Counted from the stretch's first letter, positions 5,146 to 43,064 are shown. The stretch: 64,000 nucleotides of DNA from Candidatus Poribacteria bacterium (GCA_022827185.1 JAJDTM010000002.1:1560-65559), one strand, 5' to 3'. Notes: generated from the letters alone by a model not told the origin. Program-made: numbers and translations.

Positions 5146-5328
5146 TTACCAGTTATCAGTTATCAGTTTTCAGTTAACTTCTTGTGGTGTTTTTGCTTGG
5201 GTATTTCTGCGTATTACTTTTTTGGTTACTACCACAGTATACCTCTTTAACTCTCACTGCGAGGCACACTGAAAGGATTTTTGAAAAAAATCCGTACTGA
5301 CAACTGACAACTACTATAAAAGGAGTTT

Positions 5329-5964
5329 ATGATGAAAACGTTGGTTGTCAATAGAAACAAAATTGTGTCACTCTTAGCGATGTTTACTTTTCTTGTCTTA
5401 ACCACAGTGCCTGCTTCAGCAGCTGAATTTGAGATAGGCACACACTTCGGGATTTCCCACCTCATTCCGGATAGTGATGATGACTTCTCCACAAGTCTCA
5501 CCTATACTCGGTTACCATCAGGCACATTTTTTGATGTAGGCTCTGCTCCGACTTCACTATACGCTACGTGGTTTCCGAGTCAACAGTTTGCTATCGGACC
5601 GGAATTTAGTCTTGGCAGAACATCAGTTTCTGCGGCGTATGGGGGCGAGAGCGAGACGGAGAGTGTAACGATATTCCATCTTGGCGGGCGGGCATCATAC
5701 TTCCTGCTCAGCCACGCAGTGTCTTCACCTTACATCTTAGGACGGGTTTCTCAGACCATATTTAGCGGTAGCGAATCGTCCTTTTTTGACGACGGGCAAA
5801 CCCTGACGAGTTTCGGGGTCGGTTTCGGGTATCAGTGGCGTATAGATGCTGCTTTTGTGCTGCGCGTAGAAGGGCAGTATCAGCGACTCTTCATTTCGGA
5901 TGAAGAGGATGACGCGAATGAGTTCTCACTGATAATCGGGATTGGCACTCGGTTCGGGAAGTAA
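5329..5964 (+). CDS. Small outer-membrane beta-barrel-like protein with signal peptide (OmpA-like or OmpW-like fold)
   Basis: N-terminal signal peptide ending ...TVPASAAEF. Alternating hydrophobic pattern. C-terminal ...GIGTRFGK typical of small OM barrels. A Shine-Dalgarno-like aaggag lies upstream. Confidence 0.45.
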   Translation: MMKTLVVNRNKIVSLLAMFTFLVLTTVPASAAEFEIGTHFGISHLIPDSDDDFSTSLTYTRLPSGTFFDVGSAPTSLYATWFPSQQFAIGPEFSLGRTSVSAAYGGESETESVTIFHLGGRASYFLLSHAVSSPYILGRVSQTIFSGSESSFFDDGQTLTSFGVGFGYQWRIDAAFVLRVEGQYQRLFISDEEDDANEFSLIIGIGTRFGK

Positions 5965-8804: not shown

Positions 8805-9386
8805 TTAATGGCGGTAAATGCTGACTTCAATCGCGTCCTGTTTCACCCACGGCAGATCGATATCAAACCAGTGCGTTTCAGATTCATAACGTTCGCGGAC
8901 GTGTCCGAGATAATCCGCCATCGCATCAGCTCCGATACCGACGTTATCTGCCACAACGGTTGCAGGATCCGTCAGTCGCGATTCAATTGCCTGAAAGCAC
9001 GGAAAATAGTTGCTGAAGTTGTTATCAAGGAGTAGAAAATCGACAGGGTCTTGGATGCTTTTGAGTACCTCTTGTGCATCACCGAGGCGTGAATCGACGA
9101 GGTCCGCCATGCCAGCACTTTCAAAGTTTGCGCGTGCCTGCGTCGCTCGGTCAGCGTCTATTTCGATTGTTATCAAGCGTCCAACTCCAGCATCTCTTAG
9201 CACGCGTAACATCCAAAGCCCAGAGTAACCGATAGCCGTGCCACATTCAACAATCAAAGACGGTTTCGCTTTCTCAACGCAGGCGGCGAGAAATTTTGCC
9301 TTTTCTTCGCCTAACATCGGGATACTCTCTGCCTTACACTGTGCTTCGACCTCTTGTAAAACCTGATCAAACATACGAGCCTCCAT
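8805..9386 (-). CDS. Class I SAM-dependent O-methyltransferase (caffeoyl-CoA OMT family 3-like)
   Basis: LIVECGTAIGYSGLWM SAM-binding motif, ITIEIDADRA and DFLLLD motifs typical of family-3 OMTs. Confidence 0.65.
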   Translation of the reverse strand: MEARMFDQVLQEVEAQCKAESIPMLGEEKAKFLAACVEKAKPSLIVECGTAIGYSGLWMLRVLRDAGVGRLITIEIDADRATQARANFESAGMADLVDSRLGDAQEVLKSIQDPVDFLLLDNNFSNYFPCFQAIESRLTDPATVVADNVGIGADAMADYLGHVRERYESETHWFDIDLPWVKQDAIEVSIYRH

Positions 9387-25790: not shown

Positions 25791-26633
25791 TTATTTATCG
25801 CGATCGCTTTTACCACCGAACTCTTTCTTGTAATACTCCATAATTTCTTTTCGCTCTCCGTCTGATGAAGCGTGCCGCATCTTCTCCATTATCTCCCGTT
25901 TCAACGCCTCTCGTTGCGCGGCGGCTCGATTTTTCTGCTCCATTTGCCTGCGTTTTTCAGCGGCAGCCTGATTGGCTTTTTGGCGATCGTTGTTATTGCC
26001 CGCTTTTTCGGAGCCGCCTTCGCCACGATCTCCACCTCTGTCGCCACCGCGTCTCCCCTTAGCTGTGAGAAGTTGCAATCCCCCGGTTTTGAGCGTTATA
26101 TTCTCTCCCGCTTTATCCAATATAACCCGTTTCGCTTGGATGTCCTTTACTGTTATATCACCGAGTTTTGTCCCGATCGTCACAAAGTGGTAGCGATTTG
26201 ATCTTTTTTCCAAGAGCGTTGCTTGTGAGATTGCACCGTTTGCGCTGACAGCGGTACTGACCAAACTATATGCAGGTTCATTATTCGGCGGTGTCCACCC
26301 CAGGGGTCGGAAGAGATTATGGTCAATAATTGTCTTGTAAAACACTGCATTCTCTCCGAAGTCAACGCTACCGCCACGGTTTTGCCGTCCGCGGGACCTG
26401 TTGCGTTGCGGTTGGGCTTGTTCCTTTGCTTTGGCCATTGCCTGCCTTTTAGCGGTGTATGTTTCTTTCATCTTTTTCATTTCAGCAGTGTCCATCTCCG
26501 GCTTTGTAGCGATGAACGCCGATTTTGTTTTCTCTTGCGCGTAGAGCAGTATCGCGAAACCGAGAAGCAGGCATACCACACAACCGATTCCAAGTTTTGT
26601 AATGACGCTTCCCCGATTATTAGGGGTTTTCAT
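25791..26633 (-). CDS. Tandem paralog 2 of the membrane-anchored PilP/GspC-like protein
   Basis: About 80% identical N-terminal 200 aa to 24784..25647. Same TM helix, same domain, a different low-complexity tail. Confidence 0.5.
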   Translation of the reverse strand: MKTPNNRGSVITKLGIGCVVCLLLGFAILLYAQEKTKSAFIATKPEMDTAEMKKMKETYTAKRQAMAKAKEQAQPQRNRSRGRQNRGGSVDFGENAVFYKTIIDHNLFRPLGWTPPNNEPAYSLVSTAVSANGAISQATLLEKRSNRYHFVTIGTKLGDITVKDIQAKRVILDKAGENITLKTGGLQLLTAKGRRGGDRGGDRGEGGSEKAGNNNDRQKANQAAAEKRRQMEQKNRAAAQREALKREIMEKMRHASSDGERKEIMEYYKKEFGGKSDRDK

Positions 26634-27006
26634 TGCTTTTCCTCCGTGATCTTCGGTTTCCAGACGTGTTTCTTAAGACTTCCACTTCACGGGATTCCAT
26701 TTCGGAACCTCGCGTAGACATCTCTTTGCAACTTAAGGCAGACGCTAATGCGAAAAGATTTTCTTTAATTTTACTTTGTATTTTGCTGAATGTCAAATCA
26801 AATGGCTCCTAAGGTGTCGAACTATTTGAATTTATGAACCGCCCTATACATTTATTTGGACGAAAAGATTGCCTACAAGTTTATTTCAATAAGGAGAATT
26901 GATCGCTACAGGTCTTCAACTGTCATTGCAAAAAGCGTTGACTTTCCGAAAAAAATGGGGTAAACTTTATAGAAATAGATCTTTCTCATAAAAGGAAAAA
27001 CTTGAC

Positions 27007-27561
27007 ATGAAGCGTTATAGTCCGATTCAAAAATTCATCGTCTTTGCGTGTAGTTGTGTCCTTATTTTTATTTTAACAAGTCAGCATGCGGATGCGGCGC
27101 GCCGGTCTCGTGTCCTGTCGGTAGCACTCTTTGCCTCTGGTATGAGTCTCCAAGTTGGTGGCACGCTTCTTAAAGCCTCCGCTCAAGACAGTTACGACGC
27201 ATATCTCAACGCCGCAATCCAAGCGGACATCCAATCGCACAAGGACGCTTTTCTTGTTAGACGGGATGCCAGTACCATTATGTCGCGTGTCGGTCTCGGA
27301 TGTGTCGGACTTGCTGTCCTTTTCTCACTTTATAGTCAACTTGACACACCCTCGGAGTCGTCTGAATCTGCAGAAGGTGTTCTCTCTTCCGGCATCCGCT
27401 CGCAAGTCCTTAGAACAAATCTACGCACAAGCAAGATTAATTTTACGAATTATCGCTTTGGAAACATAGGGTTGTTGTCCCCGCGCGCTTCGTTCCAATT
27501 GCTGCCACACTACGATTTCCAAAGCCAGCGTGCAAGTCTAAGGCTTCTACACATTTTTTGA
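27007..27561 (+). CDS. Secreted hypothetical protein
   Basis: Signal peptide FACSCVLIFILTSQHADA. No domain recognised. First of a three-gene putative operon. Confidence 0.35.
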   Translation: MKRYSPIQKFIVFACSCVLIFILTSQHADAARRSRVLSVALFASGMSLQVGGTLLKASAQDSYDAYLNAAIQADIQSHKDAFLVRRDASTIMSRVGLGCVGLAVLFSLYSQLDTPSESSESAEGVLSSGIRSQVLRTNLRTSKINFTNYRFGNIGLLSPRASFQLLPHYDFQSQRASLRLLHIF

Positions 27562-30551: not shown

Positions 30552-31517
30552 ATGGCTCGGAAGATGCGTCTCGGTTTAGGTCAATTCAGTGAACTTAGTG
30601 AAGAACGGTTGAAATTCATCAAACAACTCGGTGTTGAGGATGTCTTGCTCAATACGGCACAGCTCCCCGGCACGGAGCGGTGGGAATATGAGGACATCCT
30701 TCAACTTCGGAAAGAGGTTGAAGCGGTTGGATTACGGTTGGCGGCACTTGAAAACGTGCCTGTCCCGTTTTACGATAAAGCGATGCTCGGTCTGCCCGGT
30801 CGCGATGAACAGATTGAGAATATGGCAGCCACGATTCGTAATATCGGCAAGGCTGGCGTTGAGATCTTCGGATACCACTGGATGCCGAGCGGTGTCTGGC
30901 GTACTTCTCGAACCACACCCGGTCGAGGCGGTGCTGAAGTTACGAGTTTTGATATGGACGAGGTTAAAGACGCGCCGCTATCGCATGGTCGGGTTTTCAC
31001 TGAAGCCGAAATGTGGGAGAATTACGAGTATTACATGAATGCCATCCTGCCTGTTGCCGAAGAAGCAGGCGTTAAACTGGCACTTCATCCGGATGACCCG
31101 CCTGTCGAAATTCTTGCAGGGGTGCCGCGTCTGTTCCGCAACTTTGAAGGTTTTAAACGTGGGATGGAGATCGCCGACAGTCCGATACATGGACTCGATT
31201 TCTGTGTCGGTTCTTGGTCTGAGATGGGACCGGGTGTCACGGACGCGATCCGCTACTTCGGCGAACGCGACAAGATTTTCTATGTTCATTTCCGCGACGT
31301 GGAAGGACATGTTCCGAAGTTTGCTGAATCCTTTGTTGACACCGGCAATTGCGATATGTTTGATGTGATGCGCACGCTGAAGGAAGTCGGTTTTACAGGC
31401 TTCATGATTACCGACCATGTCCCACACATCGTTGATGATACAGGTTGGGGACACCGGGGCCGCGCATATGCTATCGGATACATGACAGCCTTTCTTGAAG
31501 TCTTAACAGCGACGTAG
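30552..31517 (+). CDS. uxuA: Mannonate dehydratase
   Basis: ILPVAEEAGVKLALHPDDPPV matches the E. coli UxuA region [20 protein letters not shown]. Xylose-isomerase-like TIM barrel. Confidence 0.75.
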   Translation: MARKMRLGLGQFSELSEERLKFIKQLGVEDVLLNTAQLPGTERWEYEDILQLRKEVEAVGLRLAALENVPVPFYDKAMLGLPGRDEQIENMAATIRNIGKAGVEIFGYHWMPSGVWRTSRTTPGRGGAEVTSFDMDEVKDAPLSHGRVFTEAEMWENYEYYMNAILPVAEEAGVKLALHPDDPPVEILAGVPRLFRNFEGFKRGMEIADSPIHGLDFCVGSWSEMGPGVTDAIRYFGERDKIFYVHFRDVEGHVPKFAESFVDTGNCDMFDVMRTLKEVGFTGFMITDHVPHIVDDTGWGHRGRAYAIGYMTAFLEVLTAT

Positions 31518-31535: not shown

Positions 31536-32351
31536 ATGAACCAGCCTGAATACATTGACACCATCAAGCAGGGGGACTGTATTGAGTTGATGTCCGAAAT
31601 GCCGGATGAATGTGTTGACCTCATCATAACGGATCCGCCCTTTGCCATCGACTTCAAAGCGACGCGTCACAACTACAATCGAAAAGGGAATCGCGTCCTT
31701 CAAGGTTACAACGAGATTGAAGCGAGCGACTATCTTGCTTTTACACTTGATTGGCTTTCTGCTGCCACAAGAGTGCTAAAGGATTCCGGCAGTATGTACA
31801 TTTTTTCCGGTTGGAATCATCTGAAAGATCTCTTAATAGCCATTGATCAGTGCCAACTTACGACAGTCAATCACCTCATTTGGAAATATCAGTTTGGCGT
31901 TGTTACCAAACGTAAGTACGTAACGTCTCACTATCACTGCCTTTTTGTATGCAAAAACGATAGGAAACGGAAGTTTTATCCCTATCGTCGATTTGATAAA
32001 GATGCAAAGACTGAAGACGGTGGGTCGGCACACTACAAAGATAAAGAGGATGTCTGGGAAATTAAGAGAGAATATTGGCAAGGCGCAATCAAAACGCCAA
32101 CGAAGCTGCCCGCTGAGCTTATTAATAAAATTCTTGATTATTCCAGTCAAAAAGGCGATGTTGTTTTAGATCCGTTTTTAGGCTCTGGACAGGTTGCTGT
32201 CGTCAGCAAAATGAAGGGACGGCACTACATAGGTTTTGAGATTGTGCCAGCGTATTATGAATTTGCCCTTGACCGACTTGAATCGGGAAAATACTTAATT
32301 CAAAAAACTGAAGAGGAGCCTGTATGGGATTTATTCAGTCAGAAAGAGTGA
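31536..32351 (+). CDS. Beta-class amino-DNA methyltransferase (N6-adenine or N4-cytosine)
   Basis: Motif IV DPPF (IITDPPFAIDF) precedes motif I FLGSGQ, the beta-class order. AT-rich coding bias distinct from the flanks. Confidence 0.8.
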   Translation: MNQPEYIDTIKQGDCIELMSEMPDECVDLIITDPPFAIDFKATRHNYNRKGNRVLQGYNEIEASDYLAFTLDWLSAATRVLKDSGSMYIFSGWNHLKDLLIAIDQCQLTTVNHLIWKYQFGVVTKRKYVTSHYHCLFVCKNDRKRKFYPYRRFDKDAKTEDGGSAHYKDKEDVWEIKREYWQGAIKTPTKLPAELINKILDYSSQKGDVVLDPFLGSGQVAVVSKMKGRHYIGFEIVPAYYEFALDRLESGKYLIQKTEEEPVWDLFSQKE

Positions 32352-32358
32352 TTTTATT

Positions 32359-33024
32359 ATGGTAAATCAAAAGATAGTTGACACTGTTGAAAAATTACAA
32401 AATGCCTCTCAAAGTATGCCGAAAGTTTGGGATGGGAGAAGTGCCATTCTTGAAATGAGAGATTCTGGCTCCAGACAGTGGAGGCAAATGGAATGGATGG
32501 GGTTTTACTTTGAATTTTTGTGTCAAAAATATTTTGACGGCATAATTGATATGCCCGGGAAAAAATATGGTAGGACGGAATTCGACGCATTTCGTGAAAT
32601 TTCATGGGACTTTAAAACACATGCAGCCAATACTACAAACCATAATGTCATCACAAATGATGCGGAGGCAGTGGCAAATACGATAGATGATTACGGTCAT
32701 TATGGAATTATCCTCGCGATTGGTGAAGTGGAATACAACGACGAAGAGAGGACCTTTAAAAGATGGCATGACGAGCTGAAAGAGGGTATTAGCCAATATG
32801 AAGTCAACCGAATAAATAGAGGGGCAATGTCAAGAAGACGTAAAACCGAGTTTGTTTTATCGGAAATCCATTTCATCTGCTTAAATGACGAAACCCTAAG
32901 CCAATGTAGCGGTTCATTTCAGAAAGGTTTTAGAAATGCTGATGGCAGTCTAAGACGAACAAAAGTCATGATAAACATCCGTAAAATTCCAGATGCTGCC
33001 CTTATTGCCACTGAAGAGTTCTAA
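32359..33024 (+). CDS. Putative type II restriction endonuclease partner of the methyltransferase
   Basis: Begins 8 nt after the MTase stop in the same AT-rich block. No confident family match. Inferred from context only. Confidence 0.35.
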   Translation: MVNQKIVDTVEKLQNASQSMPKVWDGRSAILEMRDSGSRQWRQMEWMGFYFEFLCQKYFDGIIDMPGKKYGRTEFDAFREISWDFKTHAANTTNHNVITNDAEAVANTIDDYGHYGIILAIGEVEYNDEERTFKRWHDELKEGISQYEVNRINRGAMSRRRKTEFVLSEIHFICLNDETLSQCSGSFQKGFRNADGSLRRTKVMINIRKIPDAALIATEEF

Positions 33025-33469
33025 AAAAGGCTGTATCAACGGTATTGATTTACTTTCGTGCACATTTTTTATAGCAGGTGTTGCTTGCAAACAACGCAAA
33101 CAAAGATTTGACATTTTCTCAAAAATGTGGTTCAATTAAAGTGTCAGTTGGACAGGAATAGCATCACGTGCATCTCTGCACGTGTCCTGTCCACCGAATG
33201 CTATCGGTAGACTGGCCCTGACGTACCTACAAGAGTGGCACTCTTCAGCCAACGGAAATTGTCAATATATGGGGTTGTCCTCAGCCTTTTCATAAGAAAT
33301 GTTCTCCGGATGCCATTGTGTCAAGTTTAGGTAGAATCTTCTTGTGAGAAGTGCCATTGTTTGTGTTAGAAGTTGAATGTATCACGGAGCTTTTCTAAAA
33401 ACTTTATCTTGCGAGGTTCGCTAAAGAATGCGCTTTGTGGATTGAAGAAACGATAGACTGAGGTGAAAT

Positions 33470-34576
33470 ATGAATATAAGTACAGAACTTCAATATGCCG
33501 GACTAGATAACTTTTATCTTGATGCAAAAAACCCGAGACTTGGGCGTTTTCAGTCTAATAGAAATCTTTCCCAGGAAGAGGTTCTGAATTTGATGCGTAA
33601 CTGGGTTCTTGATGAACTCGCTGGATCTTATCTGGAAAACGGTTTTTGGCAACACGAGGCATTGCTGGTTGTGAAAGAAGAATTATATGGAAAGGAACGT
33701 CTTGTTGTCGTTGAAGGGAACCGTAGACTGGCTGCTCTAATCTATCTTTGTCGAGCTGTTAACGGAAATCCAGTTTCCAAAAAATGGGGTTTACTCGTTG
33801 AAAACAGAGAGGTTCCTAGAGAATTTTTCGATAGAGTTCCCTACATACAGGTTGAAACTCGCGAAACGATTGAGACATTTCAAGGATTTCGTCACACCAC
33901 CGGTATTAAAAACTGGTATCCGCTAGAGAAAACGCGATACATTGGTAGATTAATAGATGATCACGGTATGACGTATAAAGAAGTAGCTCTGAAAATTGGA
34001 AGCTATACTTCCACAGTTCGACATCATTATATCTCATATCGGTTTATCCTACAGATAGAAAGCATCTTGGAGGGATTTTCTTTTGAAGATGCTGATAGTC
34101 AATTCAGTACGCTGTACCATCTGCTTCGTAAGCGGACAGTGCAGGAGTATCTTAACATTGATCCCTCTGCAGATCCACACGAGGCCCAAACACCAGTCCC
34201 CAAAAAGAGGTTGGATGCGCTGGCGCACTTTGCACGATGGTTGTTTGGCACTCAGCAACAGCCTCCTGTTTTCATTGAACCATGGCGGATTGATGACTAC
34301 GGCAAAATTTTTGAAAACCCGGAAGCCGTACAATATTTGGAAAACAGCAAAAAACCTAACTTTGACCACGCTTTGCAGCTGGCAGTTGATGATGAGTCAG
34401 AATTGGCTTATCTTCTCAGCGAGGCGGCAGCCAACGTTAAACTCGTTGTGAATCGCATTCATCTCTATAAGAACTCTCCCGAGATCCAACGCGCTGTTGA
34501 AAATTTGGTGATTGATTACAAAGAGTTACTTGACCAGTCGCTGAGTTCCGAAATGAAACCCTTGAGTGATGATTGA
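33470..34576 (+). CDS. ParB/Srx-like nuclease-domain protein with a central HTH
   Basis: VVEGNRRLAAL matches the ParB N-terminal GxRRxxA motif. A probable HTH lies at MTYKEVALKIGSYTSTVRHH. Confidence 0.5.
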   Translation: MNISTELQYAGLDNFYLDAKNPRLGRFQSNRNLSQEEVLNLMRNWVLDELAGSYLENGFWQHEALLVVKEELYGKERLVVVEGNRRLAALIYLCRAVNGNPVSKKWGLLVENREVPREFFDRVPYIQVETRETIETFQGFRHTTGIKNWYPLEKTRYIGRLIDDHGMTYKEVALKIGSYTSTVRHHYISYRFILQIESILEGFSFEDADSQFSTLYHLLRKRTVQEYLNIDPSADPHEAQTPVPKKRLDALAHFARWLFGTQQQPPVFIEPWRIDDYGKIFENPEAVQYLENSKKPNFDHALQLAVDDESELAYLLSEAAANVKLVVNRIHLYKNSPEIQRAVENLVIDYKELLDQSLSSEMKPLSDD

Positions 34577-34783
34577 GGCCTATACGTTGTCTCTCTGAGT
34601 CCTCTTAAGTGTTGTCTCACACTTGGAGTAGAGTCTGAAAATAGGTGATCAGGTTCGCTGAGGGATGGTGCAGCTAGTTTCCACCAACTGCTCTACCCTC
34701 ATATCAGGTGGTATACGCGCGGTACCGTAAGAATTAGTGTGGAAACATAATTATCGGCTTTGCTATAAAAGGCACCTATAAAA

Positions 34784-35290
34784 ATGCTAAGGTATCAGCT
34801 ATTTCCCAGATCCCAGGGCATAACCCAGCAAATTCAATACGTTATTGAATGTTTTGAACGCACGTACGATCAGATAAAGTCTCCTGAAAACGAACTGAAA
34901 AGTGACGAAGTTTTGGACATATTGAGGTCTCATCTTGAACAGATTGGATTCACAGTAGAAACCGGGAAAGCAAAAGGGCAAAAAATTCCTGTGCCTGTTC
35001 TCTTCGGCTTGAATAATACCGTTGACCAGTCTTTCAACGCCGATGGTGTAAGCAATGACGGGAAAATAGTTATTGAAGTTGAAGCAGGCAGAGCAACTGC
35101 TAATTACGCATTTCTTAAAGACATTTTTCAGGCATCAATGATGCATGGTGTTGAATTCCTAATCTTGGCTGTTAGAAATGATTATAGAGGTGGCGACGAT
35201 TTCCAGAAAGTTTATACTTTTTTGGAAACATTATACATCAGCAGCCGATTGGTGCTGCCGCTGAAGGGAATTATCCTGATCGGATATTAA
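34784..35290 (+). CDS. Hypothetical protein (possible PD-(D/E)XK-like fold)
   Basis: 168 aa. D...IVIEVEAG resembles a restriction-endonuclease-like core, but this is weak. Confidence 0.3.
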   Translation: MLRYQLFPRSQGITQQIQYVIECFERTYDQIKSPENELKSDEVLDILRSHLEQIGFTVETGKAKGQKIPVPVLFGLNNTVDQSFNADGVSNDGKIVIEVEAGRATANYAFLKDIFQASMMHGVEFLILAVRNDYRGGDDFQKVYTFLETLYISSRLVLPLKGIILIGY

Positions 35291-35387
35291 CGGTAAGACC
35301 TACCTAAGAGCAGCCAGCAGGAGAAAACGTCTGCAACTGCCATAAACGAGAACCCATAGCCGCCCGTCAATACAAGAGGACTATAAA

Positions 35388-36161
35388 ATGGCGCAAGTTG
35401 TCCCTTTAAGATACGATACTGCATTTAAGAAAGCGTTCGGTCAACCCGAGATTTTTTGTCAATTTGCCGAAGACGTTTTAGGTATCAAATTCCATACCGA
35501 TGAGGTGCATCGCGGCTACAAGTTCCTTGAACCTATCGGGCAGGTCGATATTGAATACGATCTGTTTGCTGAGGATCCAGAATCTCGAATTGTGGTTGAG
35601 ATACAACACGTCAGAGAACGCAACTTTCGTGATCGTTCCCGCTATTATCATCGGCAGGTGAAAAATAGCAAGGCGTATCAGTTCGATCGGACAGTTTACA
35701 CGATTGTTGTTTTAACAAGTCCGTATCATGAGGACGAAATCGACTTTAGTGTGGCTATCACAGATTTCAACCTGGTCAACGAATTTAGTCGCAAAGTCGA
35801 TGTCTATCCGCATCAACTTGTATTTGTGGTCCCGCGTATGGTCAACGATAAGACCCCGTCTGGCATTAAAGCGTGGTTGGAACTTGTGTTGGATTCTCTG
35901 GATGGCGAGATAGATGAAAGCCGCTATAGTTCGCCAATTTTCGAGCGGGTGATTGATGCGGTTAAACTTGGCAATATCTCACCGGCGGAGCGCAGGGTAC
36001 TCAAAGATGAAGAGTCTTGGGAAGATACCCTAATAGATGCAAGGCAGCAGGAAAAGGAAACGATTGCACGCGCAATGATTAGTGAAGGATTAAGCACCGA
36101 GGTCATCGCAAGAACAACGGGAATTCCAGAAGCAGACATCGAAAAACTAAGGCAATCCTAA
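35388..36161 (+). CDS. Rpn/YhgA-like PD-(D/E)XK nuclease family protein (putative transposase)
   Basis: N-terminal RYDTAFKKAFG and C-terminal helix IARAMISEGLSTEVIARTTGIPEADIEKL are characteristic of the Rpn/TIGR01784 family. Confidence 0.55.
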   Translation: MAQVVPLRYDTAFKKAFGQPEIFCQFAEDVLGIKFHTDEVHRGYKFLEPIGQVDIEYDLFAEDPESRIVVEIQHVRERNFRDRSRYYHRQVKNSKAYQFDRTVYTIVVLTSPYHEDEIDFSVAITDFNLVNEFSRKVDVYPHQLVFVVPRMVNDKTPSGIKAWLELVLDSLDGEIDESRYSSPIFERVIDAVKLGNISPAERRVLKDEESWEDTLIDARQQEKETIARAMISEGLSTEVIARTTGIPEADIEKLRQS

Positions 36162-36360: not shown

Positions 36361-38001
36361 ATGTTTAATAGACCCCCAACCATCGGTGAATACCTACTCA
36401 GAAAACTGGAAAGTTACGATATTGGACACATCTTCGGTATCCCTGGCGATTATGTGCTGCGGTTCTATGACCTCATAGAGAAAAGTTCAATTCGGCATAT
36501 CGGGATGACCCGTGAGGACGCGGCAGGTTATGCGGCAGATGCCTACGCACGCACAAACGGGATGGGGGCTGCCTGTGTTACCTATTGCGTCGGTGGGTTA
36601 TCAATGGTGAACGCCGTTGCGGGTGCCTACGCCGAGAAATCACCCGTCGTTGTCATTAGCGGCGCGCCAGGTATCAGAGAACGCGGGAAAGATGCCCTGC
36701 TCCACCATAAAGTCAGGGATTTCCATACACAACAACATATCTATGACGAGATTACCGTCGCGACCGCGCTGCTCGATGAACCCTTTACGGCTTTCAACGA
36801 AATTGATCGGGTGCTTGATGCGGTGGATCGCTATAAACGCCCTGGCTACTTAGAACTCCCACGCGATATGGTAGATGTCCGCGGCACACTCTACCAACGT
36901 CCATCAACGGGTGGACATCTCAGTGACCCAGACACATTAGATGCCGCTGTTACGGATGCTATTGATTTCATTAATCAGAGCAAGAAACCGGTGGTTCTTG
37001 CAGGTGTAGAGGTACACAGATTTGGCTACCGAAACAAATTGACCCGGTTCGTAGAAGAGAAACGCATTCCTGTGGTGGCGACGCTCCTCGGGAAATCTGT
37101 TATCTCAGAATCACATCCGCTCTACTTGGGTATCTATGAAGGTGCCATGGGACGGGAAGAAGTCAGACGATTCGTTGAAGATTCGGATTGTGTTATCATC
37201 CTCGGGGCATTCATGACGGATGTCAATCTCGGCATTTACACGGCAAACCTCGACCGTTCGCGTTCTATCTATGCGACATCGGAAAAGATCATGGTCCGCT
37301 ATCACTCATACGAAGAAGTGATGTTTGATGACTTTATTGACGGCATCAATTCGCCGAAACTCCGAAAGCGGCGGAAACCGAATTTGGAGTGGGCACTCCG
37401 AGATTCAAAACCGTTTGTTGTCGAGCCTAATGCCCCTCTAACAGTGCGTCGGTTGTTTCGACACCTCAACGAATTTATTACCGATGGGCTGGTAGTAATC
37501 GCGGATGTCGGCGATAGCCTCTTCGGTGCTGTGGAATTGCGAATGTCTCAAGACACCGATTTTATCAGTCCTGCGTACTATACCTCAATGGGATTTGCCG
37601 TCCCCGCATCTGTTGGTGCGCAACTCAGTATGCCTAACAAACGTCCGCTCGTTATCGTCGGAGATGGTGCCTTCCAGATGACTGGCACCGAACTCTCAAC
37701 AACCGTGCGTTACGGACTCAATCCGATTATCCTGCTTTTAAACAACCACGGGTACGGCACAGAACGGCATCTTCTTGAGGGAGCTTTCAACGATATAGGG
37801 TGTTGGAACTACAGCAGCATGCCAGCCCTCTTTAGTGCGGGGCGTGGCATCCATGTCCGGACGGAAGGTGAGTTTGAAACTGCTATCAAAACTGCACTCG
37901 CTGAGACGCAGCACTTTACGCTGATTGAAGCGGAGCTCGAAAAGTTGGATACGTCACCTGCCCTTGCCCGGTTAGCAGAACGGATGTCCGGCACAGTTTA
38001 A
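36361..38001 (+). CDS. Thiamine-pyrophosphate-dependent 2-keto acid decarboxylase (indolepyruvate/pyruvate decarboxylase family)
   Basis: IGEYLLRKLESYDIGHIFGIPGDY, GYAADAYAR and the TPP-binding GDGAFQMT motif. 546 aa. Confidence 0.65.
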   Translation: MFNRPPTIGEYLLRKLESYDIGHIFGIPGDYVLRFYDLIEKSSIRHIGMTREDAAGYAADAYARTNGMGAACVTYCVGGLSMVNAVAGAYAEKSPVVVISGAPGIRERGKDALLHHKVRDFHTQQHIYDEITVATALLDEPFTAFNEIDRVLDAVDRYKRPGYLELPRDMVDVRGTLYQRPSTGGHLSDPDTLDAAVTDAIDFINQSKKPVVLAGVEVHRFGYRNKLTRFVEEKRIPVVATLLGKSVISESHPLYLGIYEGAMGREEVRRFVEDSDCVIILGAFMTDVNLGIYTANLDRSRSIYATSEKIMVRYHSYEEVMFDDFIDGINSPKLRKRRKPNLEWALRDSKPFVVEPNAPLTVRRLFRHLNEFITDGLVVIADVGDSLFGAVELRMSQDTDFISPAYYTSMGFAVPASVGAQLSMPNKRPLVIVGDGAFQMTGTELSTTVRYGLNPIILLLNNHGYGTERHLLEGAFNDIGCWNYSSMPALFSAGRGIHVRTEGEFETAIKTALAETQHFTLIEAELEKLDTSPALARLAERMSGTV

Positions 38002-38067: not shown

Positions 38068-38871
38068 CTACAACGCAGTGATCTTCTCACGTAAGAAGTT
38101 CGTACAGAAAGGCACCTGTTCTTCCGAAAGTCCGTGCAGCACGACTGCGCCGTCATAACCGCTCTCCTTTAGCAGACCGAGATATTGGTCGTAGTCGAGC
38201 AACCCTGTCCCCGCGGCGAGGTGTCCTGCCTGTCCGTCCGTGTCCAAATCTTTAGCGTGTGCAAGTGCAATGTCGCCGCCGAGCAGTGCGAACGCCTCAT
38301 TAAGGATTTCACGCATCTTTGGCAGCTCACCTTTGTGAAAAATGTTCGCGCCGTCCATACACACCTTTAGGTAAGGGGATTGCATCTCATCAAGCAGGCG
38401 ACGCGCTTTCTGGGCAGAATCAATTACGTTTGCGACTTCAGGTTCAAGTGCAAGCACTACGTCGTATTCCTCCGCCACTGCTAACGCCTGTTTCATGGAT
38501 TCAACGAGATCGCGCCACGCTTCTGGCGTATTGTTGTCAGGATGTGCACGCCACATGCTCTGCGGGTCGCGAGAGCCGGTGCAGAGCGTAATGACCGATG
38601 TTCCGAGCGGTGCGCAGGTCTCCGCGACAGAACGCAACATCCGCAGCCCGGCGTGGCGTTTCTCAACATCAGGGTCAATCATATTATAGGTGCCTGAAAG
38701 TGCAGAAATCGTAATCTGTCGAGCGTCCATCTCTTTGCGGATCTCGGCAATCGACGGTCCCGATGCAGGCACATGATACTGTAGATGATGGACACCGTGT
38801 TCCACAACGGCATTAAGATTCTCGGTGAGTGTTTTTCGGCGAATTGTTCCTTCCATGAGTCCAACGTGCAT
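38068..38871 (-). CDS. Sugar phosphate isomerase/epimerase (xylose-isomerase-like TIM barrel)
   Basis: 267 aa with the AP-endonuclease-2/XylI-like TIM barrel pattern (LALEPE..., HAKD). Confidence 0.55.
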   Translation of the reverse strand: MHVGLMEGTIRRKTLTENLNAVVEHGVHHLQYHVPASGPSIAEIRKEMDARQITISALSGTYNMIDPDVEKRHAGLRMLRSVAETCAPLGTSVITLCTGSRDPQSMWRAHPDNNTPEAWRDLVESMKQALAVAEEYDVVLALEPEVANVIDSAQKARRLLDEMQSPYLKVCMDGANIFHKGELPKMREILNEAFALLGGDIALAHAKDLDTDGQAGHLAAGTGLLDYDQYLGLLKESGYDGAVVLHGLSEEQVPFCTNFLREKITAL

Positions 38872-39109
38872 AAATTTCTCCTACTGAATGATGGTTTGCG
38901 GTAAGTTTAGCGTAAAAAAATAGGAATATCACAGAAAACACAACGATTATACAACACAAAGGATAAGATGACAAGCAAAATGGGGTGTCGCGTCAGAGTC
39001 ATTCAATTGTAGGTTTTGGTGTTTGGTGTTGTATTTTTCGCAGGTGGTAACACTTAATGTATGTTATGTATTAAAACAAAACGCCGAAATTTTCGCTAGA
39101 TTTCGCAGC

Positions 39110-39164
39110 GGATCCTGAAAAAAAGACGTAAAATCGAATAATTTCTTAAAATTGAATGGCCCTG
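39110..39164 (+). repeat. Roughly 55-bp conserved intergenic motif shared with 10866-10920
   Basis: ggatcctgaaaaaaagacgtaaaatcgaataatttcttaaaattgaatggccctgg is about 90% identical to 10866-10920. Both lie about 100 nt upstream of a plus-strand gene. Confidence 0.55.
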
Positions 39165-39267
39165 GTTATCGCGTAGGTGAGTACCACTGAAGTACTTCGC
39201 TATTTTGGTATCTTGACATTATTTCTACATTCATGATACGATACTTTCATTCAGGAGTGCGGAGGTA

Positions 39268-40698
39268 TTGTCTACGATGAACTCGGAATTGATTATCACT
39301 AAAATATGCAACGCTATTGATCTGATGATCGAAAGTAGTAAGCCATATAAAGGGCTGTTCCCATCTATGCTACATCCGAAAACGGGTGAGATGCTAACAG
39401 AAAAACCGCCCAAAATTCCCGGTCAAAGGGATGGTGATCGCGCGCATCTCGGCACGAACTTGATCCACGATGAACCGTTGCTCGCCACAATGAACGTGCT
39501 TGCTGAAACCGAATCGAAACCGGAATACGCCGAAGCAGTGGATCAATACTTGGAACACTTTGCCCAACGTTGCACGCATACGGCGACCGGTCTGTTCCCT
39601 TGGGGTGAGCATTCGTTTTGGCAGCTGATTGAGGAACGTGTCGGGTGTTCTCGGAATCCAGACGGTGGTGCCGCAATTCACGATCATCTGCGTAAGGTTC
39701 CGCTGTGGCTCTGGCAAAAACTGAATACATATAATCCGGCATGTGTGCAAAGTTTCGCCGATGGCTTGGATTATCATTGGACAGAAGGCGACGGACTTGA
39801 ATACATCCGCCATGCGAATATCGACACAAAAGCGCATCTCGTTCGCGGGGGGCGAGCGTGTGATTTTCCACGGCATTCAGGCTTTTATATTTTCGATTTG
39901 GTGTTCGCATATACGCAAGATCAACGTCCTGAAACCCTTCAACAGATCCAGAATTATACCGATTACTGGTGGGAAAAGCGGGACGCGCGTGGGCTTTTAC
40001 GTATTGAGAGTCGTTCACCCAAAGAGGCAGAACGGTTTTTTGAGATGAATGCGCCGACGCAGACGTTCTCATTAGGGGTAAGTCTGCTTGAATCCGCAGC
40101 ATTGATAGAATCACTTCTCCCTGAATTGGCGGATCAGATGCGGCGATACGGCTTGGTTTACATTGACGGATTTCTCGCCGCCCCGCACAACCTCGAAACA
40201 CGTGAATTTATCAGTTTATGTGAGTGTGAGACGGATCGGATTGTTGAACGTATGTCCTCTTGGGGAAGCGTCTACGGTTCGGGAACTGTGTGCAGCACAG
40301 GGGTGCTATGTCTTGCAGGATGGCGATTGACGCAGAATGAAAGGTTGATGGAATACGCACGCGCCGTTGGCAGTACCTATCTTGATGAGAAATTTCCGGT
40401 TGACCAAGTTCACGCGGAGGCGTTCAAGATTCCAGCATCGGATGCGGGTCTCACACTTGAATTGTTTGCGGATCTCTACGACATCACCGGTGAATCGGTG
40501 TGGTTGGATGGTGGCATTGAACTTGCGGAGACAGTGTTGGAGGTCTATTTTCCCGATACGCTTCCATACGGTGCATCTGCGATTGATTGGTATGAATCAC
40601 AGATGGGGGCAGCGTTCCTGATTCACGGTTTGGCTCGAGTGGCACTGCTATCACTTCATCAAACATGTCCGCTTGCACCTAATTACACGGCGCGATAG
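39268..40698 (+). CDS. Hypothetical protein (476 aa), possibly alpha-helical toroid glycosidase/lyase-like
   Basis: Long ORF with good coding periodicity. No motif recognised. Confidence 0.4.
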   Translation: MSTMNSELIITKICNAIDLMIESSKPYKGLFPSMLHPKTGEMLTEKPPKIPGQRDGDRAHLGTNLIHDEPLLATMNVLAETESKPEYAEAVDQYLEHFAQRCTHTATGLFPWGEHSFWQLIEERVGCSRNPDGGAAIHDHLRKVPLWLWQKLNTYNPACVQSFADGLDYHWTEGDGLEYIRHANIDTKAHLVRGGRACDFPRHSGFYIFDLVFAYTQDQRPETLQQIQNYTDYWWEKRDARGLLRIESRSPKEAERFFEMNAPTQTFSLGVSLLESAALIESLLPELADQMRRYGLVYIDGFLAAPHNLETREFISLCECETDRIVERMSSWGSVYGSGTVCSTGVLCLAGWRLTQNERLMEYARAVGSTYLDEKFPVDQVHAEAFKIPASDAGLTLELFADLYDITGESVWLDGGIELAETVLEVYFPDTLPYGASAIDWYESQMGAAFLIHGLARVALLSLHQTCPLAPNYTAR

Positions 40699-41810: not shown

Positions 41811-42590
41811 TTGACCTATGGGGTAAAAATTATGAGAACCTATTGTGCAAGCACCCTCCCCTTTTCCTCTTTTCCTTTGACGGAGTTTGTTGGCGAGTTA
41901 TCTGAAGGTGGTGTGTCTGCTATTGAACTTGCCCAACCCCATTTTTCAGATGTGGCAGCCGAAACTATCGCCGAACTTCGAGAAGAGACAGGGGCCCGTT
42001 TCAAATCTCTGCTAAGCACGGTGCGAGTTGACGCACCAGACGGGATTGAAGCACTCATCTCGATTCTTGACACTGCCGAAAGACTTTCCATTCCAATCGT
42101 CAGCATCGCGAGTGGTGGCAATGAAACCGCCACGGCTCGTGAGATTGAAACGATTATTGAGCATCTCAAAACGGTCACCGAGGAAGCGGCGGCTCGCAAT
42201 CTGACCCTCGTCCTCTATGCGCACGAAGGGAGTCTCGCCTACAACCTTGAACGCACACAGCAGATCCTCAACGCGATCCCTTCCGAAAACTTTGGCTTTT
42301 ACTACAGCCCCTATCATTTCCATCGCGCTGGAGATGATCCCGTTGTTGCCTTGCAAACGTTGTCAGAACGGCTGGTGAGCGTCTATTTCAACTGCGGTGT
42401 CGATTCGCAAACAGGTAGCGAACCGTTCTGGGCACCGGAAATGGATTTCCCTGCTATCTGTCAGGAGATAGACCGCGTCGGTTACACCGAAGAAATCATG
42501 CTGATCTATTTAGGATTGAACGCGGAAACCCCACAACCGATTGTTGATGGGGTCTTAAACGCGCGTGCGAAGTTAGAAACCTACTTTTAA
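41811..42590 (+). CDS. Xylose-isomerase-like TIM-barrel protein
   Basis: 259 aa. GVSAIELAQP and YAHEGSLAYNLE resemble sugar-phosphate isomerase/epimerase family members. Confidence 0.45.
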   Translation: MTYGVKIMRTYCASTLPFSSFPLTEFVGELSEGGVSAIELAQPHFSDVAAETIAELREETGARFKSLLSTVRVDAPDGIEALISILDTAERLSIPIVSIASGGNETATAREIETIIEHLKTVTEEAAARNLTLVLYAHEGSLAYNLERTQQILNAIPSENFGFYYSPYHFHRAGDDPVVALQTLSERLVSVYFNCGVDSQTGSEPFWAPEMDFPAICQEIDRVGYTEEIMLIYLGLNAETPQPIVDGVLNARAKLETYF

Positions 42591-43064
42591 TTGCAGGTAC
42601 TTTATTGTCCCATTCCACACGTTACACGAAAACGACAGATAAAAACGGGCAAAATGTTGGGAACTTTGCTTCTCACGTTGTGCATCATGTATGATCATAC
42701 TTGTGGTTTCTCAAAACCCAATGCCAACGTGCTGTTTGTTTTCTCCAAATTTCTTTAGTATATTCCTATAATTACTCCCGTCTCTCAAAAAAATCCTTTC
42801 AAAAGTGTCCAAACGTCTTTCAGGGACATCCATTGTGTGTTTCCCTCCGTAATCGGGGTTTATCCTGCGTTCAGAACCCGATACTCGCAGAACAACTTCT
42901 AAAAATCCTGATTTTTTTGTTATTTTTTTCAAATGATGTGAGTTTTCCGTCCAAAACTTCGTCTTTAATAATAGAAGGTATGAACCGTATCGCCCTACGT
43001 AGTTTTACAAGACCCGGCATCTGATTAAGCCTTTCGGCGGATACGGACACGCCCCAACTGTTTA

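Follow-up and report, generated by a model that had tools for sequence, protein, structure and literature searches.

The DNA analysed here, called the window, is a 64,000-nt stretch of a Candidatus Poribacteria metagenome scaffold, and the locus under study is a 4.6-kb block within it. The preliminary description had proposed that five plus-strand genes fill the space between uxuA and a gene for a TPP enzyme, and all five open reading frames were present there. The block, its borders and its noncoding features are as follows.

30552..31517, plus strand: uxuA-like host gene, left border of the hotspot (PF03786)
31536..32351, plus strand: MTase271, beta-class N6/N4 DNA methyltransferase, 271 aa (PF01555, PADLOC MTase_II)
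32359..33024, plus strand: p221, predicted PD-(D/E)XK endonuclease, 221 aa (conserved D...DxK motif)
33140..33205, plus strand: conserved bulged hairpin of 66 nt between p221 and ParBL (folding z, conservation)
33275..34770, no strand assigned: allele-replacement segment, ParBL and both flanking spacers (DNA identity profile)
33470..34576, plus strand: ParBL, predicted ParB/Noc/KorB fold with HTH, 368 aa (AF2, Foldseek, phrog_3694)
34784..35290, plus strand: p168, predicted small endonuclease, 168 aa (AF2/Foldseek, BamHI/OkrAI-like)
35388..36161, plus strand: Rpn/YhgA-like PD-(D/E)XK protein (PDDEXK_2), 257 aa (PF12784)
36361..38001, plus strand: TPP-dependent decarboxylase-type host gene, right border of the hotspot (PF02776/PF00205/PF02775)

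The turn to AT-rich composition reported for this block is real and matches the gene boundaries, and its size is moderate, at about 6 GC points. The block had the lowest GC of the window (42.4% versus 48.3% in the remainder); a GC this low was found in only 0.25% of equal-length windows, and the window-wide minimum lay at 31801. The suggested k-mer comparison agreed, with a tetranucleotide distance between the block and the rest of z = 3.57, which was reached by 2.5% of other windows. The five block genes had GC3 values of 0.37 to 0.45, whereas those of Dtd, uxuA and the TPP gene were 0.51 to 0.53. No tRNA gene, which the preliminary description had proposed as a possible att site, was found anywhere in the window, and no convincing direct repeats flanked the block.

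MTase271 matched PF01555 (5.3e-40), PADLOC MTase_II (3.8e-65) and the DNA methyltransferase family phrog_67 (4e-57). The DPPF motif at residues 33 to 36 precedes FLGSG near residue 213, the order of the beta class, so the catalytic and SAM-binding motifs of a SAM-dependent DNA methyltransferase are both present, as had been described. The DPPF motif suggests that the target is probably N6-adenine. The gene was found in eight related loci at pairwise identities of 82 to 93%. The next gene, p221, starts 8 nt past the MTase271 stop. In a 17-sequence alignment, residues D76, D84 and F85 were invariant and K86 was near-invariant (motif FDAF..SWDFK). The protein showed a weak match to PADLOC REase_II (6.6e-4) and no match in Pfam, PDB or PHROG; its 409 homologs included none with a name, and its dN/dS was 0.06 to 0.13. 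The proposed restriction-modification pair was partly supported, by MTase271, the PD-(D/E)XK-like motif of p221 and the 8-nt spacing. However, p221 orthologs with an intact motif occurred without MTase271 in loci L003 and L010, where tblastn found no MTase271 remnant nearby, and six Dcm-type loci carried p221 orthologs beside another MTase class. Judged on the MTases at the locus, p221 departs from the rule that a restriction endonuclease is not kept without its cognate MTase.

ParBL was modelled by AF2 (pLDDT 81) as a ParB/Noc/KorB-fold putative NTP-switch domain, an HTH and a family-specific C-terminal helical domain. Foldseek matched this model to CTP and CDP complexes of ParB, Noc and KorB in the PDB (E 2e-6 to 1e-4, about 250 aligned columns). 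From coliphage to Poribacteria, at 24 to 62% identity, residues D18, NPR21-23 and GNRR83-86 were invariant, and the 130-aa C-terminal domain was conserved. The noted VVEGNRRLAAL motif is present in the protein, and the HTH is supported by the fold match; together, the GxRR motif and the HTH place the N-terminal part with the ParB-type fold. The name "ParB-like nuclease" holds for the ParB/Noc/KorB CTPase fold with HTH, but nothing points to nuclease activity of ParBL itself. ParBL matched phrog_3694 over residues 5 to 348 (1.8e-47). Its PADLOC matches covered only the N-terminal domain or domains; they were PD-Lambda-5_A (3e-15), confined to the N-terminal 226 aa, and PDC-M38A (2e-13). PADLOC had no model for p221, p168 or C8, a protein described below. 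No published description of the ParBL family was found.

The AF2 model of p168 (pLDDT 77.6, pTM 0.78) matched OkrAI best (3odh; Foldseek probability 0.99, TMq 0.60, with a weak E value of 0.012), followed by seven BamHI chains, and no Pfam or PDB match was found at the sequence level. In 68 sequences of 32 to 62% identity, a candidate catalytic triad D87/E98-x-E100 was conserved, with D87 and E98 at >=90% and E100 invariant. The acidic residues of BamHI are D94, E111 and E113. The candidate D...ExE pattern of p168 is similar and may correspond to these residues. p168 differs from BamHI and OkrAI in lacking detectable sequence similarity, in having only 168 aa, in often lacking a nearby MTase and in having solitary relatives. 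Its 2,878 homologs formed 730 clusters at 50% identity, and its dN/dS was 0.02 to 0.08. In L003, L010 and L036, p221 or p168 occurred without any nearby MTase. Relatives of p168 occur without ParBL, either beside another MTase or alone. Some distant ones stand by themselves among housekeeping genes, which is a poor fit to classical Type II restriction.

The assignment of the last gene of the block to the Rpn/PDDEXK_2 group in the preliminary description is supported by a PF12784 match above the cut-off (1.9e-9, 38.1 bits versus 27.4). Its match to TIGR01784 (7.5e-8) was below the cut-off (32.5 bits versus 52.1), with the best stretch covering only the C-terminal 46 positions, and that to the "transposase" family phrog_3300 (8e-9) covered only the C-terminal part. 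Besides the window, this gene was present in only five related loci, always in the arrangement MTase271-p221-ParBL-p168; it is an optional addition, placed after p168 and before the TPP gene.

Comparison of 31 species-level loci identified the slot between uxuA and the TPP-decarboxylase gene as a variable hotspot. The uxuA-like gene was 88 to 99% identical between loci with different cargo, and hosts with 98 to 99% identical uxuA carried different cargo in the same slot; the TPP-decarboxylase-type gene was 84 to 91% identical between loci. ParBL is the constant element of the cassette family in these 31 loci. Its neighbors were always restriction-modification parts, namely, beta-class N6/N4, Dcm or Dam-type MTases, PD-(D/E)XK proteins and an HNH protein, and modules were mixed and matched between loci. 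Several ParBL alleles were represented among the roughly 11 species-level loci with the order p221-ParBL-p168, and p168 lay downstream of ParBL in 17 of the 31. The cassette was also found in a second chromosomal slot, on contigs labelled Ignavibacteria, Victivallaceae, Planctomycetaceae, Chloroflexota and Binatia, and on a Neorhizobium conjugative plasmid; ParBL-(C8)-p168 was seen again in the second slot and on the Ignavibacteria-labelled contig. In L009, C1/C2 were 61% identical, yet the MTase was 89% and p168 was 88% identical, so that cassette genes exceeded host genes in some pairs. The second slot, the other phyla and this excess conservation support the proposal of a horizontally acquired, defence-type accessory block. 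Syntenic orthologs in related genomes, which had been taken as the sign of a core region, do formally exist for ParBL and p168, but the variable slot content marks the region as a hotspot rather than core. Within a hotspot, association does not separate functional linkage from co-accretion.

Outside the window, ParBL has a co-evolving partner, a protein of about 312 aa termed C8. The Spearman correlation between ParBL and C8 was 0.82, and the ParBL-C8 spacer was 0 nt in all 14 loci in which C8 was called as an open reading frame; ParBL-C8 is a genuine unit. In the window, C8 is absent: a 207-nt spacer follows ParBL, then p168, and tblastn with C8 found no remnant. The correlations of p168, p221 and the MTase with ParBL were 0.21 to 0.31 (0.21 for p168), and a physical partnership of ParBL with these proteins is unsupported because they do not co-diverge with it. 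The suggestion that ParBL and the following small gene form one module therefore holds for the recurrent order in 17 of 31 loci but not for co-divergence, since distant relatives of p168 occur without ParBL and the protein that does co-diverge, C8, is missing.

The ParBL-C8 unit was also found in P2-like phages. In Wphi, gp98 and gp96 matched ParBL and C8 (5e-37 and 7e-13), and these genes form a ParBL-C8-Dcm triad (gp98/gp96/Mth), with a C5 MTase, located at the end of the genome behind gene A and orf91. This is the variable region of P2-like phages beside replication gene A, in which P2 carries tin and old. Phage D14A, phage 12474III and the Neorhizobium plasmid (3e-104) likewise carried ParBL-C8, in every case together with a C5 MTase. 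The ParBL profile aligned with gp98 over positions 7 to 334, and the matches to gp98, D14A and 12474III together lay within positions 5 to 351, so that homology to the phage family is full length and includes the C-terminal helical domain. The phage families of the triad are phrog_3694 and phrog_3984/phrog_14650, of which the ParBL and C8 families are labelled "unknown function". As in the window, the phage triad places a hypervariable ParBL beside a conserved DNA MTase; between coliphages, the MTase was 98% identical, whereas ParBL was 32% and C8 25% identical. The window differs in lacking C8, in carrying p221 and p168 instead, and in having, two genes upstream of ParBL, an N6/N4 MTase rather than the C5 MTase of the phages.

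ParBL also varied sharply between closely related cassettes. DNA identity between the window and L026 was 81 to 93% up to about 33275, 51 to 75% over 33425-34622 (with gapped spacers) and 81 to 91% from 34772, and the same pattern was seen against L023 and L031. ParBL was 56% identical between flanks of 88 to 99% identity, with sharp DNA boundaries. ParBL has thus been swapped or has diverged allele by allele relative to otherwise near-identical cassettes. Its dN/dS was 0.18 to 0.44, compared with 0.02 to 0.13 for its neighbors, and dS was several-fold below that of the flanks. ParBL was intact in 12 of 12 loci lacking C8, and purifying selection on it was seen in the six tested loci of allele group 1. 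No palindrome or repeat common to both ParBL spacers was conserved across loci. The hairpin upstream of the replaced segment had a minimum free energy of -30.1 kcal/mol (z -5.3), and none of 200 shuffles folded equally well. In five further loci, also where the ParBL alleles diverge, it was 92 to 100% identical; the stem carried four changes, all G.U-compatible on the plus strand, and no double compensations. It had no match in Rfam and is probably an RNA element, namely, a terminator, stability or regulatory element.

Next, we compared the block with known systems. PD-lambda-5 (Vassallo et al. 2022, PMC9519451) is prophage-borne, and its published description is that of a compacted "RM+Abi" system. 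Its protein A starts with a ParB-N-type domain and is paired with a DNA methyltransferase, like ParBL and its MTase; ParBL matched 18 PD-Lambda-5_A profiles (best 3e-15), and in L007 the MTase adjoining ParBL matched PD-Lambda-5_B (3e-16). However, only residues 13 to 226 of ParBL aligned (profile 17 to 229 of 473), leaving the C-terminal half of PD-Lambda-5_A unmatched, and the phage relatives of ParBL aligned over only about 160 N-terminal positions. The window MTase belongs to PF01555, whereas that of PD-lambda-5 is of the D12 class; PF02086 scored 16.4 bits on MTase271, below the cut-off of 22, and PD-Lambda-5_B was not among the best 25 of its 75 PADLOC matches. Among PADLOC models, PD-lambda-5 has no equivalents of p221, p168 or C8. 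Identity with PD-lambda-5 was rejected, as neither a full-length protein A nor an adjacent D12-class protein B is found in the window. GmrSD, BrxU and SspE (DUF262 + DUF1524) are defence enzymes that join a ParB-clan NTP-binding domain to a DNA nuclease. ParBL has GNRR (EGNRR in the window) with an HTH, as do ParB, KorB and Noc, whereas GmrSD-type DUF262 has DGQQR, and the window nucleases are encoded separately and have other folds. A GmrSD/DUF262-DUF1524 Type IV system was rejected on this motif and on the lack of any reported PF03235 or PF07510 match in the five block proteins. ParB-HNH fusions have been noted (PMC12704722), and an HNH_2 protein directly after ParBL in L038 resembles this concept. 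DndB regulates a DNA-modification/restriction operon (PMC12704722). DndB and KorB, which are NTP-dependent transcriptional repressors, share with ParBL the ParB fold and DNA binding, and KorB chains were among its structural matches; no operator was found in the ParBL spacers. A DndB-type regulator was rejected, with no DndB/DGQHR-type Pfam or NCBIfam match reported and neither dnd nor ssp genes present in the neighborhoods.

It is possible, though somewhat unlikely, that ParBL acts on transcription alone, controlling the adjacent nuclease and restriction-modification genes with no direct role in DNA cleavage. As a large analogue of C-proteins, DndB and KorB, it would bind operators in the flanking spacers and delay or limit nuclease expression, and its allele diversity would reflect operator-specificity (incompatibility) groups. 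The HTH and the KorB/Noc-like fold are consistent with this role. ParBL is always upstream of and codirectional with nuclease-like genes, and its stop abuts the C8 start; the phage and L037 versions often have a divergently oriented MTase. This arrangement mirrors the C-R / M layouts of known C-protein systems. The replaced segment spans both spacers, where operators would lie, and DndB (PMC12704722) is a ParB-like protein that itself represses a DNA-modification operon. In contrast, the ParBL-C8 co-divergence (0.82) and the translational coupling of the two genes point to a protein complex, the spacers share no palindrome or repeat across loci, the conserved hairpin is positioned beyond the replaced segment and does not change from allele to allele, and the invariant NTP-motif residues and 130-aa C-terminal domain surpass the needs of a simple repressor.

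It is clearly unlikely that a recombination hotspot houses the five genes as tenants without functional ties. The block would then contain an ordinary Type II pair of MTase and p221, a decaying or orphan ParBL from ParBL-C8, an unrelated p168 (e.g., a modification-dependent or repair enzyme) and an Rpn-family gene. Independent evolution (Spearman 0.21 to 0.31 against ParBL, differing dS), the mixing of modules, the p168 relatives that stand without ParBL and the missing C8 favor such tenancy. However, the recurrence of p221-ParBL-p168 in about 11 loci and of ParBL-(C8)-p168 in the second slot and on the Ignavibacteria-labelled contig speaks against it, as does ParBL remaining intact under purifying selection without C8. 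The p221 motif also stays intact where the MTase is missing, which an ordinary Type II endonuclease should not tolerate. It is extremely improbable that ParBL serves as a conventional ParB in the partition or maintenance of an integrated mobile element, with the block being a plasmid or prophage remnant. The ParB/Noc/KorB fold with HTH, relatives in phages and plasmids, weak TIGR00180 and HTH_ParB matches and a match to phrog_1033 "ParB-like partition protein" (3.8e-7) would fit such a protein. Nevertheless, TIGR00180 reached 15.8 bits against a cut-off of 58.45, PF02195 had no match at E <= 0.1, and the chromosomal neighborhoods held no ParA-type, integrase, replication or phage structural gene; for ParA, no such Pfam family occurred among the called neighbors of L001-L007 and no such recurrent annotated cluster in the 31 loci. 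The cassette comprises just one to five genes with host genes on both sides. P2-like phages integrate and have no need of a partition system; in them, the gene lies in a cargo region and not among the core genes.

With moderate confidence, we interpret the block as a laterally exchanged restriction-type defence cassette in a Poribacteria hotspot, with ParBL as its organizing subunit. The beta-class MTase would mark self DNA, p221 (PD-(D/E)XK) and p168 (BamHI/OkrAI-like) would be the DNA-cutting parts, and the Rpn-like gene would be an independent add-on. Like ParB, KorB and Noc, ParBL may act as a DNA-binding switch gated by NTP, one that either licenses or targets the adjoining nucleases on DNA or sets their expression. 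The ParBL family is widespread; elsewhere, it is translationally coupled to C8, usually beside a DNA methyltransferase, and the window would represent a C8-less variant. Altogether, we infer that ParBL is an uncharacterized ParB-fold hub of a defence-type cassette, and its fast, swapped alleles would be expected of a component under arms-race or specificity/incompatibility selection.

The locus is a defence-type hotspot cassette around an uncharacterised ParB-fold family. Five plus-strand ORFs are flanked by a UxuA-family gene on the left and a TPP-enzyme gene on the right, both recognised from Pfam tags, and lie at exactly the positions reported in the preliminary description:

30552-31517: uxuA, left flanking gene
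31536-32351, + strand: MTase271, DNA methyltransferase
32359-33024, + strand: p221, putative nuclease
33470-34576, + strand: ParBL, 368-aa ParB-like protein
34784-35290, + strand: p168, putative nuclease
35388-36161, + strand: Rpn-like protein
36361-38001: TPP-decarboxylase-type gene, right flanking gene

The block had also been described as AT-rich, and this was borne out by its GC content of 42.4%, compared with 48.3% elsewhere in the window. For its size it ranks as the lowest-GC stretch, with only 0.25% of equal-length windows having an equally low value. The tetranucleotide distance between the block and the remaining window gave a z of 3.6, and GC3 was 0.37-0.45 in the block genes versus 0.51-0.53 in the flanking genes. 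Elsewhere, the stretch at approximately 1001-5626 showed a tetranucleotide distance of 0.272, slightly above the 0.259 of the island, and short patches of approximately 0.39-0.41 GC were located at 26500-27250, 38750-39500, and 42500-43000. The proposed search for a tRNA attachment site or flanking repeats gave neither: the window contained no tRNA gene, and no att-like flanking repeats held up. Close to the borders, only one long-range repeat was present, an inverted pair of 14 nt (31688/36221), and it was judged to be due to chance because its left arm is inside the MTase ORF. A 17-nt direct repeat (core AGGTTCGCT) present in both ParBL-flanking spacers was considered as an operator or cassette-boundary candidate and was rejected as chance, since it was missing from the closest relative, L008, and no motif shared by the spacers recurred across 30 loci. 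An Rfam search over the block gave no match, and scans for sigma-70 promoters and terminators gave nothing above shuffled expectation.

The closest relatives were Candidatus Poribacteria MAGs. Across 31 species-level loci, ParBL was the constant element, and its neighbours fell into four recurring arrangements, including A, B, and D below, where C8 is an approximately 312-aa ParBL partner.

Table. Arrangements of ParBL neighbours, with outgroups
Arrangement A: [MTase271] p221 ParBL p168 [Rpn]; approximately 11 loci, including the window
Arrangement B: [another N6/N4 MTase] ParBL C8 p168; approximately 6 loci
Arrangement D: ParBL, D12 MTase, and SacI-like endonuclease
Outgroup Victivallaceae: ParBL-C8 alone
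Outgroup Chloroflexota: ParBL-C8 and divergent C5 MTase
Outgroup Binatia: ParBL and HNH_2 protein

Taken together, the arrangements and outgroups indicate that all ParBL neighbourhoods are built from restriction-modification parts. Poribacteria carry the cassette in two different chromosomal slots. The slot bounded by uxuA and the TPP gene has different cargo in hosts whose uxuA matches that of the window at 98-99% identity (L024 versus L026). For L009 and L011, identity to the window is 80-91% in the cassette genes and just 59-61% in the host genes C1 and C2. The variable cargo, the closer relationship of cassette genes than of host genes, and the composition establish a hotspot with lateral exchange. 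The earlier view of the block as a defence-like island was upheld. In L007, a DDE_Tnp_1 transposase with DUF4277 (2240-3865; Pfam tags) adjoins the second slot, and L021 carries a member of the same 541-aa protein cluster (C33) within its slot-2 cassette; this transposase is a possible vehicle for moving the cassette.

In the structure search, the ParBL model (pLDDT 81) matched nucleotide complexes of ParB, Noc, and KorB over approximately 250 columns (E of 2e-6 to 1e-4). The matched region consisted of the N-terminal CTPase fold and the HTH; the C-terminal helical domain of approximately 130 aa was unmatched. These matches agree with the ParB-like part of the earlier label of ParB-like nuclease; no sign of nuclease activity was seen in ParBL itself. 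The sequence was below the PF02195 and TIGR00180 thresholds; a match to phrog_3694 ("unknown function"; 1.8e-47) spanned the whole protein, and 1,788 homologs were present in the protein collection. Sequences ranging from coliphage to Poribacteria (24-62% identity) all retain D18, N21-P22-R23, G83-N84-R85-R86, R131, H142, T144-G145, K147, W149, K154, and G177-S178, including the residues of boxes I and II through which ParB binds nucleotide. ParB-fold CTP/NTP switches are now being recognised beyond chromosome segregation. A 2025 survey of ParB-CTPase folds relies on PF02195 (PMC12704722), whereas the ParBL family has no PF02195 match.

MTase271 is a beta-class N6/N4 DNA methyltransferase (PF01555, 5e-40; PADLOC MTase_II, 4e-65), and the motifs previously quoted, DPPF ahead of FLGSG in MTase271 and VVEGNRRLAAL in ParBL, were present in the translations. 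The p221 protein showed a weak PADLOC REase_II match (6.6e-4) and otherwise no family match; its D76 and D84-F-K86 form a PD-(D/E)XK signature kept across 17 orthologs. The Rpn-like last gene was assigned to PDDEXK_2, over the Pfam cut-off and under the NCBIfam cut-off. Of the restriction-modification pair suggested for MTase271 and p221, both the methyltransferase and the nuclease signature were found; strict pairing was not, as L003 and L010 have motif-intact p221 orthologs without MTase271 and no MTase remnants were found beside them.

The top structural match of the p168 model (pLDDT 77.6, pTM 0.78) was OkrAI, a statistically weak match (probability 0.99, TMq 0.60, E 0.012), with seven BamHI chains as the next matches. 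Among 68 p168 relatives (32-62% identity), E100 was invariant and D87 and E98 were near-invariant; this D...ExE arrangement, predicted from the sequence ahead of the fold search, is the pattern expected of a BamHI-type site. No sequence-level link for p168 was obtained from PDB sequences, against which the p221, p168, and ParBL profiles gave only noise, or from Pfam, which gave nothing consistent on the 68 relatives. A weak precomputed "Halo_RE" tag on one p168 relative was not reproducible, and relatedness among p168, p221, and C8 was discarded after p168 gave nothing in profile-profile comparison with either p221 or C8. In L036, p168 is accompanied by ParBL alone. A 39%-identical relative lies in another defence-like cluster without ParBL or C8 (L042, 1-8912), in the order 307 aa, DUF6339, DUF4420, 782-aa C5 MTase, 219 aa, p168-like, MazG-like, and SLFN-type helicase, and one with 33% identity stands alone among housekeeping genes. 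Because p221 occurs without MTase271 and p168 occurs with ParBL alone, without ParBL or C8, or by itself, p168 is not an obligate ParBL partner and neither protein behaves as a classical MTase-dependent Type II enzyme.

C8, for which no Pfam or PADLOC model was found, was called as an ORF in 14 loci and in each of them starts at or ahead of the ParBL stop codon; in L024 and L029 it was found by tblastn. Co-divergence with ParBL (Spearman) was 0.82 for C8, compared with 0.31 for p221, 0.23 for the MTase, 0.21 for p168, and -0.14 for uxuA. Since C8 abuts ParBL and co-diverges with it whereas the others do not, ParBL-C8 is an evolutionary unit. The suggested module of ParBL and the following small gene was sustained only in part, p168 not being the co-evolving partner. 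In the window, C8 was absent, and no remnant was present in the ParBL-p168 spacer. Right after the ParBL stop codon in L036 (approximately 9108-9168), a 10-residue match to the C8 N-terminus (80% identity, E 1.6) may be the scar of a deletion in this locus of ParBL and p168, the match being very short.

Between L026 and the window, the flanking host genes are 95-99% and the cassette neighbours 88-94% identical, and ParBL is just 56% identical. DNA identity was 81-93% to approximately 33275, 51-75% across ParBL with gapped spacers, and 81-91% from 34772. At a 70% threshold, at least 11 ParBL allele groups were present among the Poribacteria loci. Within the allele group of the window, dN/dS was 0.18-0.44 for ParBL versus 0.02-0.13 for p168, p221, MTase, and uxuA. 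The dS of ParBL was several-fold below that of p221, MTase, and uxuA for the same genome pairs (window versus L008, L009, L010, L011, and L003) and also below that of p168, except in the L008 and L010 pairs; the values were 0.34 versus 1.0-2.0 for the flanks with L009 and 0.07 versus 0.45-0.58 with L008. The low dS indicates that the ParBL allele of the window was shared laterally at a more recent date than the DNA around it.

Immediately beyond the replaced segment, the p221-ParBL spacer contains a 66-nt bulged hairpin (33140-33205, + strand; GGACAGGA / CACGTGCA-TCTC-TGCACGTG / TCCTGTCC), which is very stable (MFE -30.1 kcal/mol, z -5.3). Its conservation is 92-100% in L008, L011, L023, L025, and L026, above that of adjacent coding DNA and including loci with divergent ParBL alleles, and all stem changes are G.U-compatible on the + strand. 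The hairpin had no Rfam match and contains the canonical parS core, CACGTG, two times.

A related triad was found in P2-like phages. In phage Wphi (L039, 96-3266), gp98 is ParBL-like (profile E 5e-37) and gp96 is C8-like (7e-13), and together with the C5 MTase Mth they are located behind gene A and orf91, at the end of the genome, which is the site of tin and old in P2. The tin/old region of P2 is a recognised anti-phage hotspot (PMC9122126). The triad was also present in a Pseudomonas P2-like phage and in phage vB_EcoM-12474III (L050, 3501-6537). The C5 MTases of Wphi and vB_EcoM-12474III are 98% identical, and their ParB-like and C8-like proteins are 32% and 25% identical; the signature of ParBL replacement recurs here, the pair having been swapped beside a conserved MTase. 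Among PADLOC profiles, ParBL matched PD-Lambda-5_A over the N-terminal half of that profile only and PDC-M38A in part. The published description of PD-lambda-5 is of a compacted "RM+Abi" system of prophages (PMC9519451); its common part with ParBL is limited to the N-terminal ParB-type region. In the literature, we found no description of the ParB-like and C8 pair, PDC-M38, or the function of Wphi gp98/gp96.

We lean toward a defence cassette in which ParBL has a functional link to the neighbouring nucleases and MTase. Such a cassette would be a restriction-type defence unit in which the MTase would mark self DNA, p221 and p168 would be nucleases, and ParBL would be an NTP-gated DNA-binding switch, acting either by licensing or targeting nucleases on DNA or by governing their expression. 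Within this defence-cassette reading, a sensor role (licensing or targeting) has only a modest lead. A pure transcriptional controller, analogous to DndB, KorB, or a C-protein, is a serious if rather unlikely rival, as the gene order, the HTH, and the replacement of both spacers along with ParBL all fit it. Independent co-tenancy of the genes in a hotspot is possible at a low probability, and the locus would then be an ordinary defence island. A partition ParB is very unlikely: the locus has no ParA and no replicon context, and ParBL does not reach the curated ParB thresholds.

More tentatively, and with considerable doubt, ParBL may represent an undescribed restriction or defence class, in which a ParB/KorB-type NTP-gated DNA clamp would sense or license swappable nuclease modules (C8, p221, p168, and HNH) and methyltransferases. 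Next to a conserved MTase, the clamp gene would be the part that evolves fast and is swapped laterally, determining specificity or anti-defence evasion, a pattern that would extend from P2-like coliphages to the chromosomes of sponge symbionts. If this is true, a candidate system unmodelled by PADLOC v2 would be added, and Wphi or vB_EcoM-12474 prophages carrying gp98/gp96/Mth would provide a ready E. coli model for a system of uncultured Poribacteria. The replacement of a single gene or gene pair by 25-56% identical alleles within near-identical cassettes would point to a component under arms-race or incompatibility selection, and the widespread ParBL family would tie the ParB switch to restriction-type nucleases and methyltransferases.
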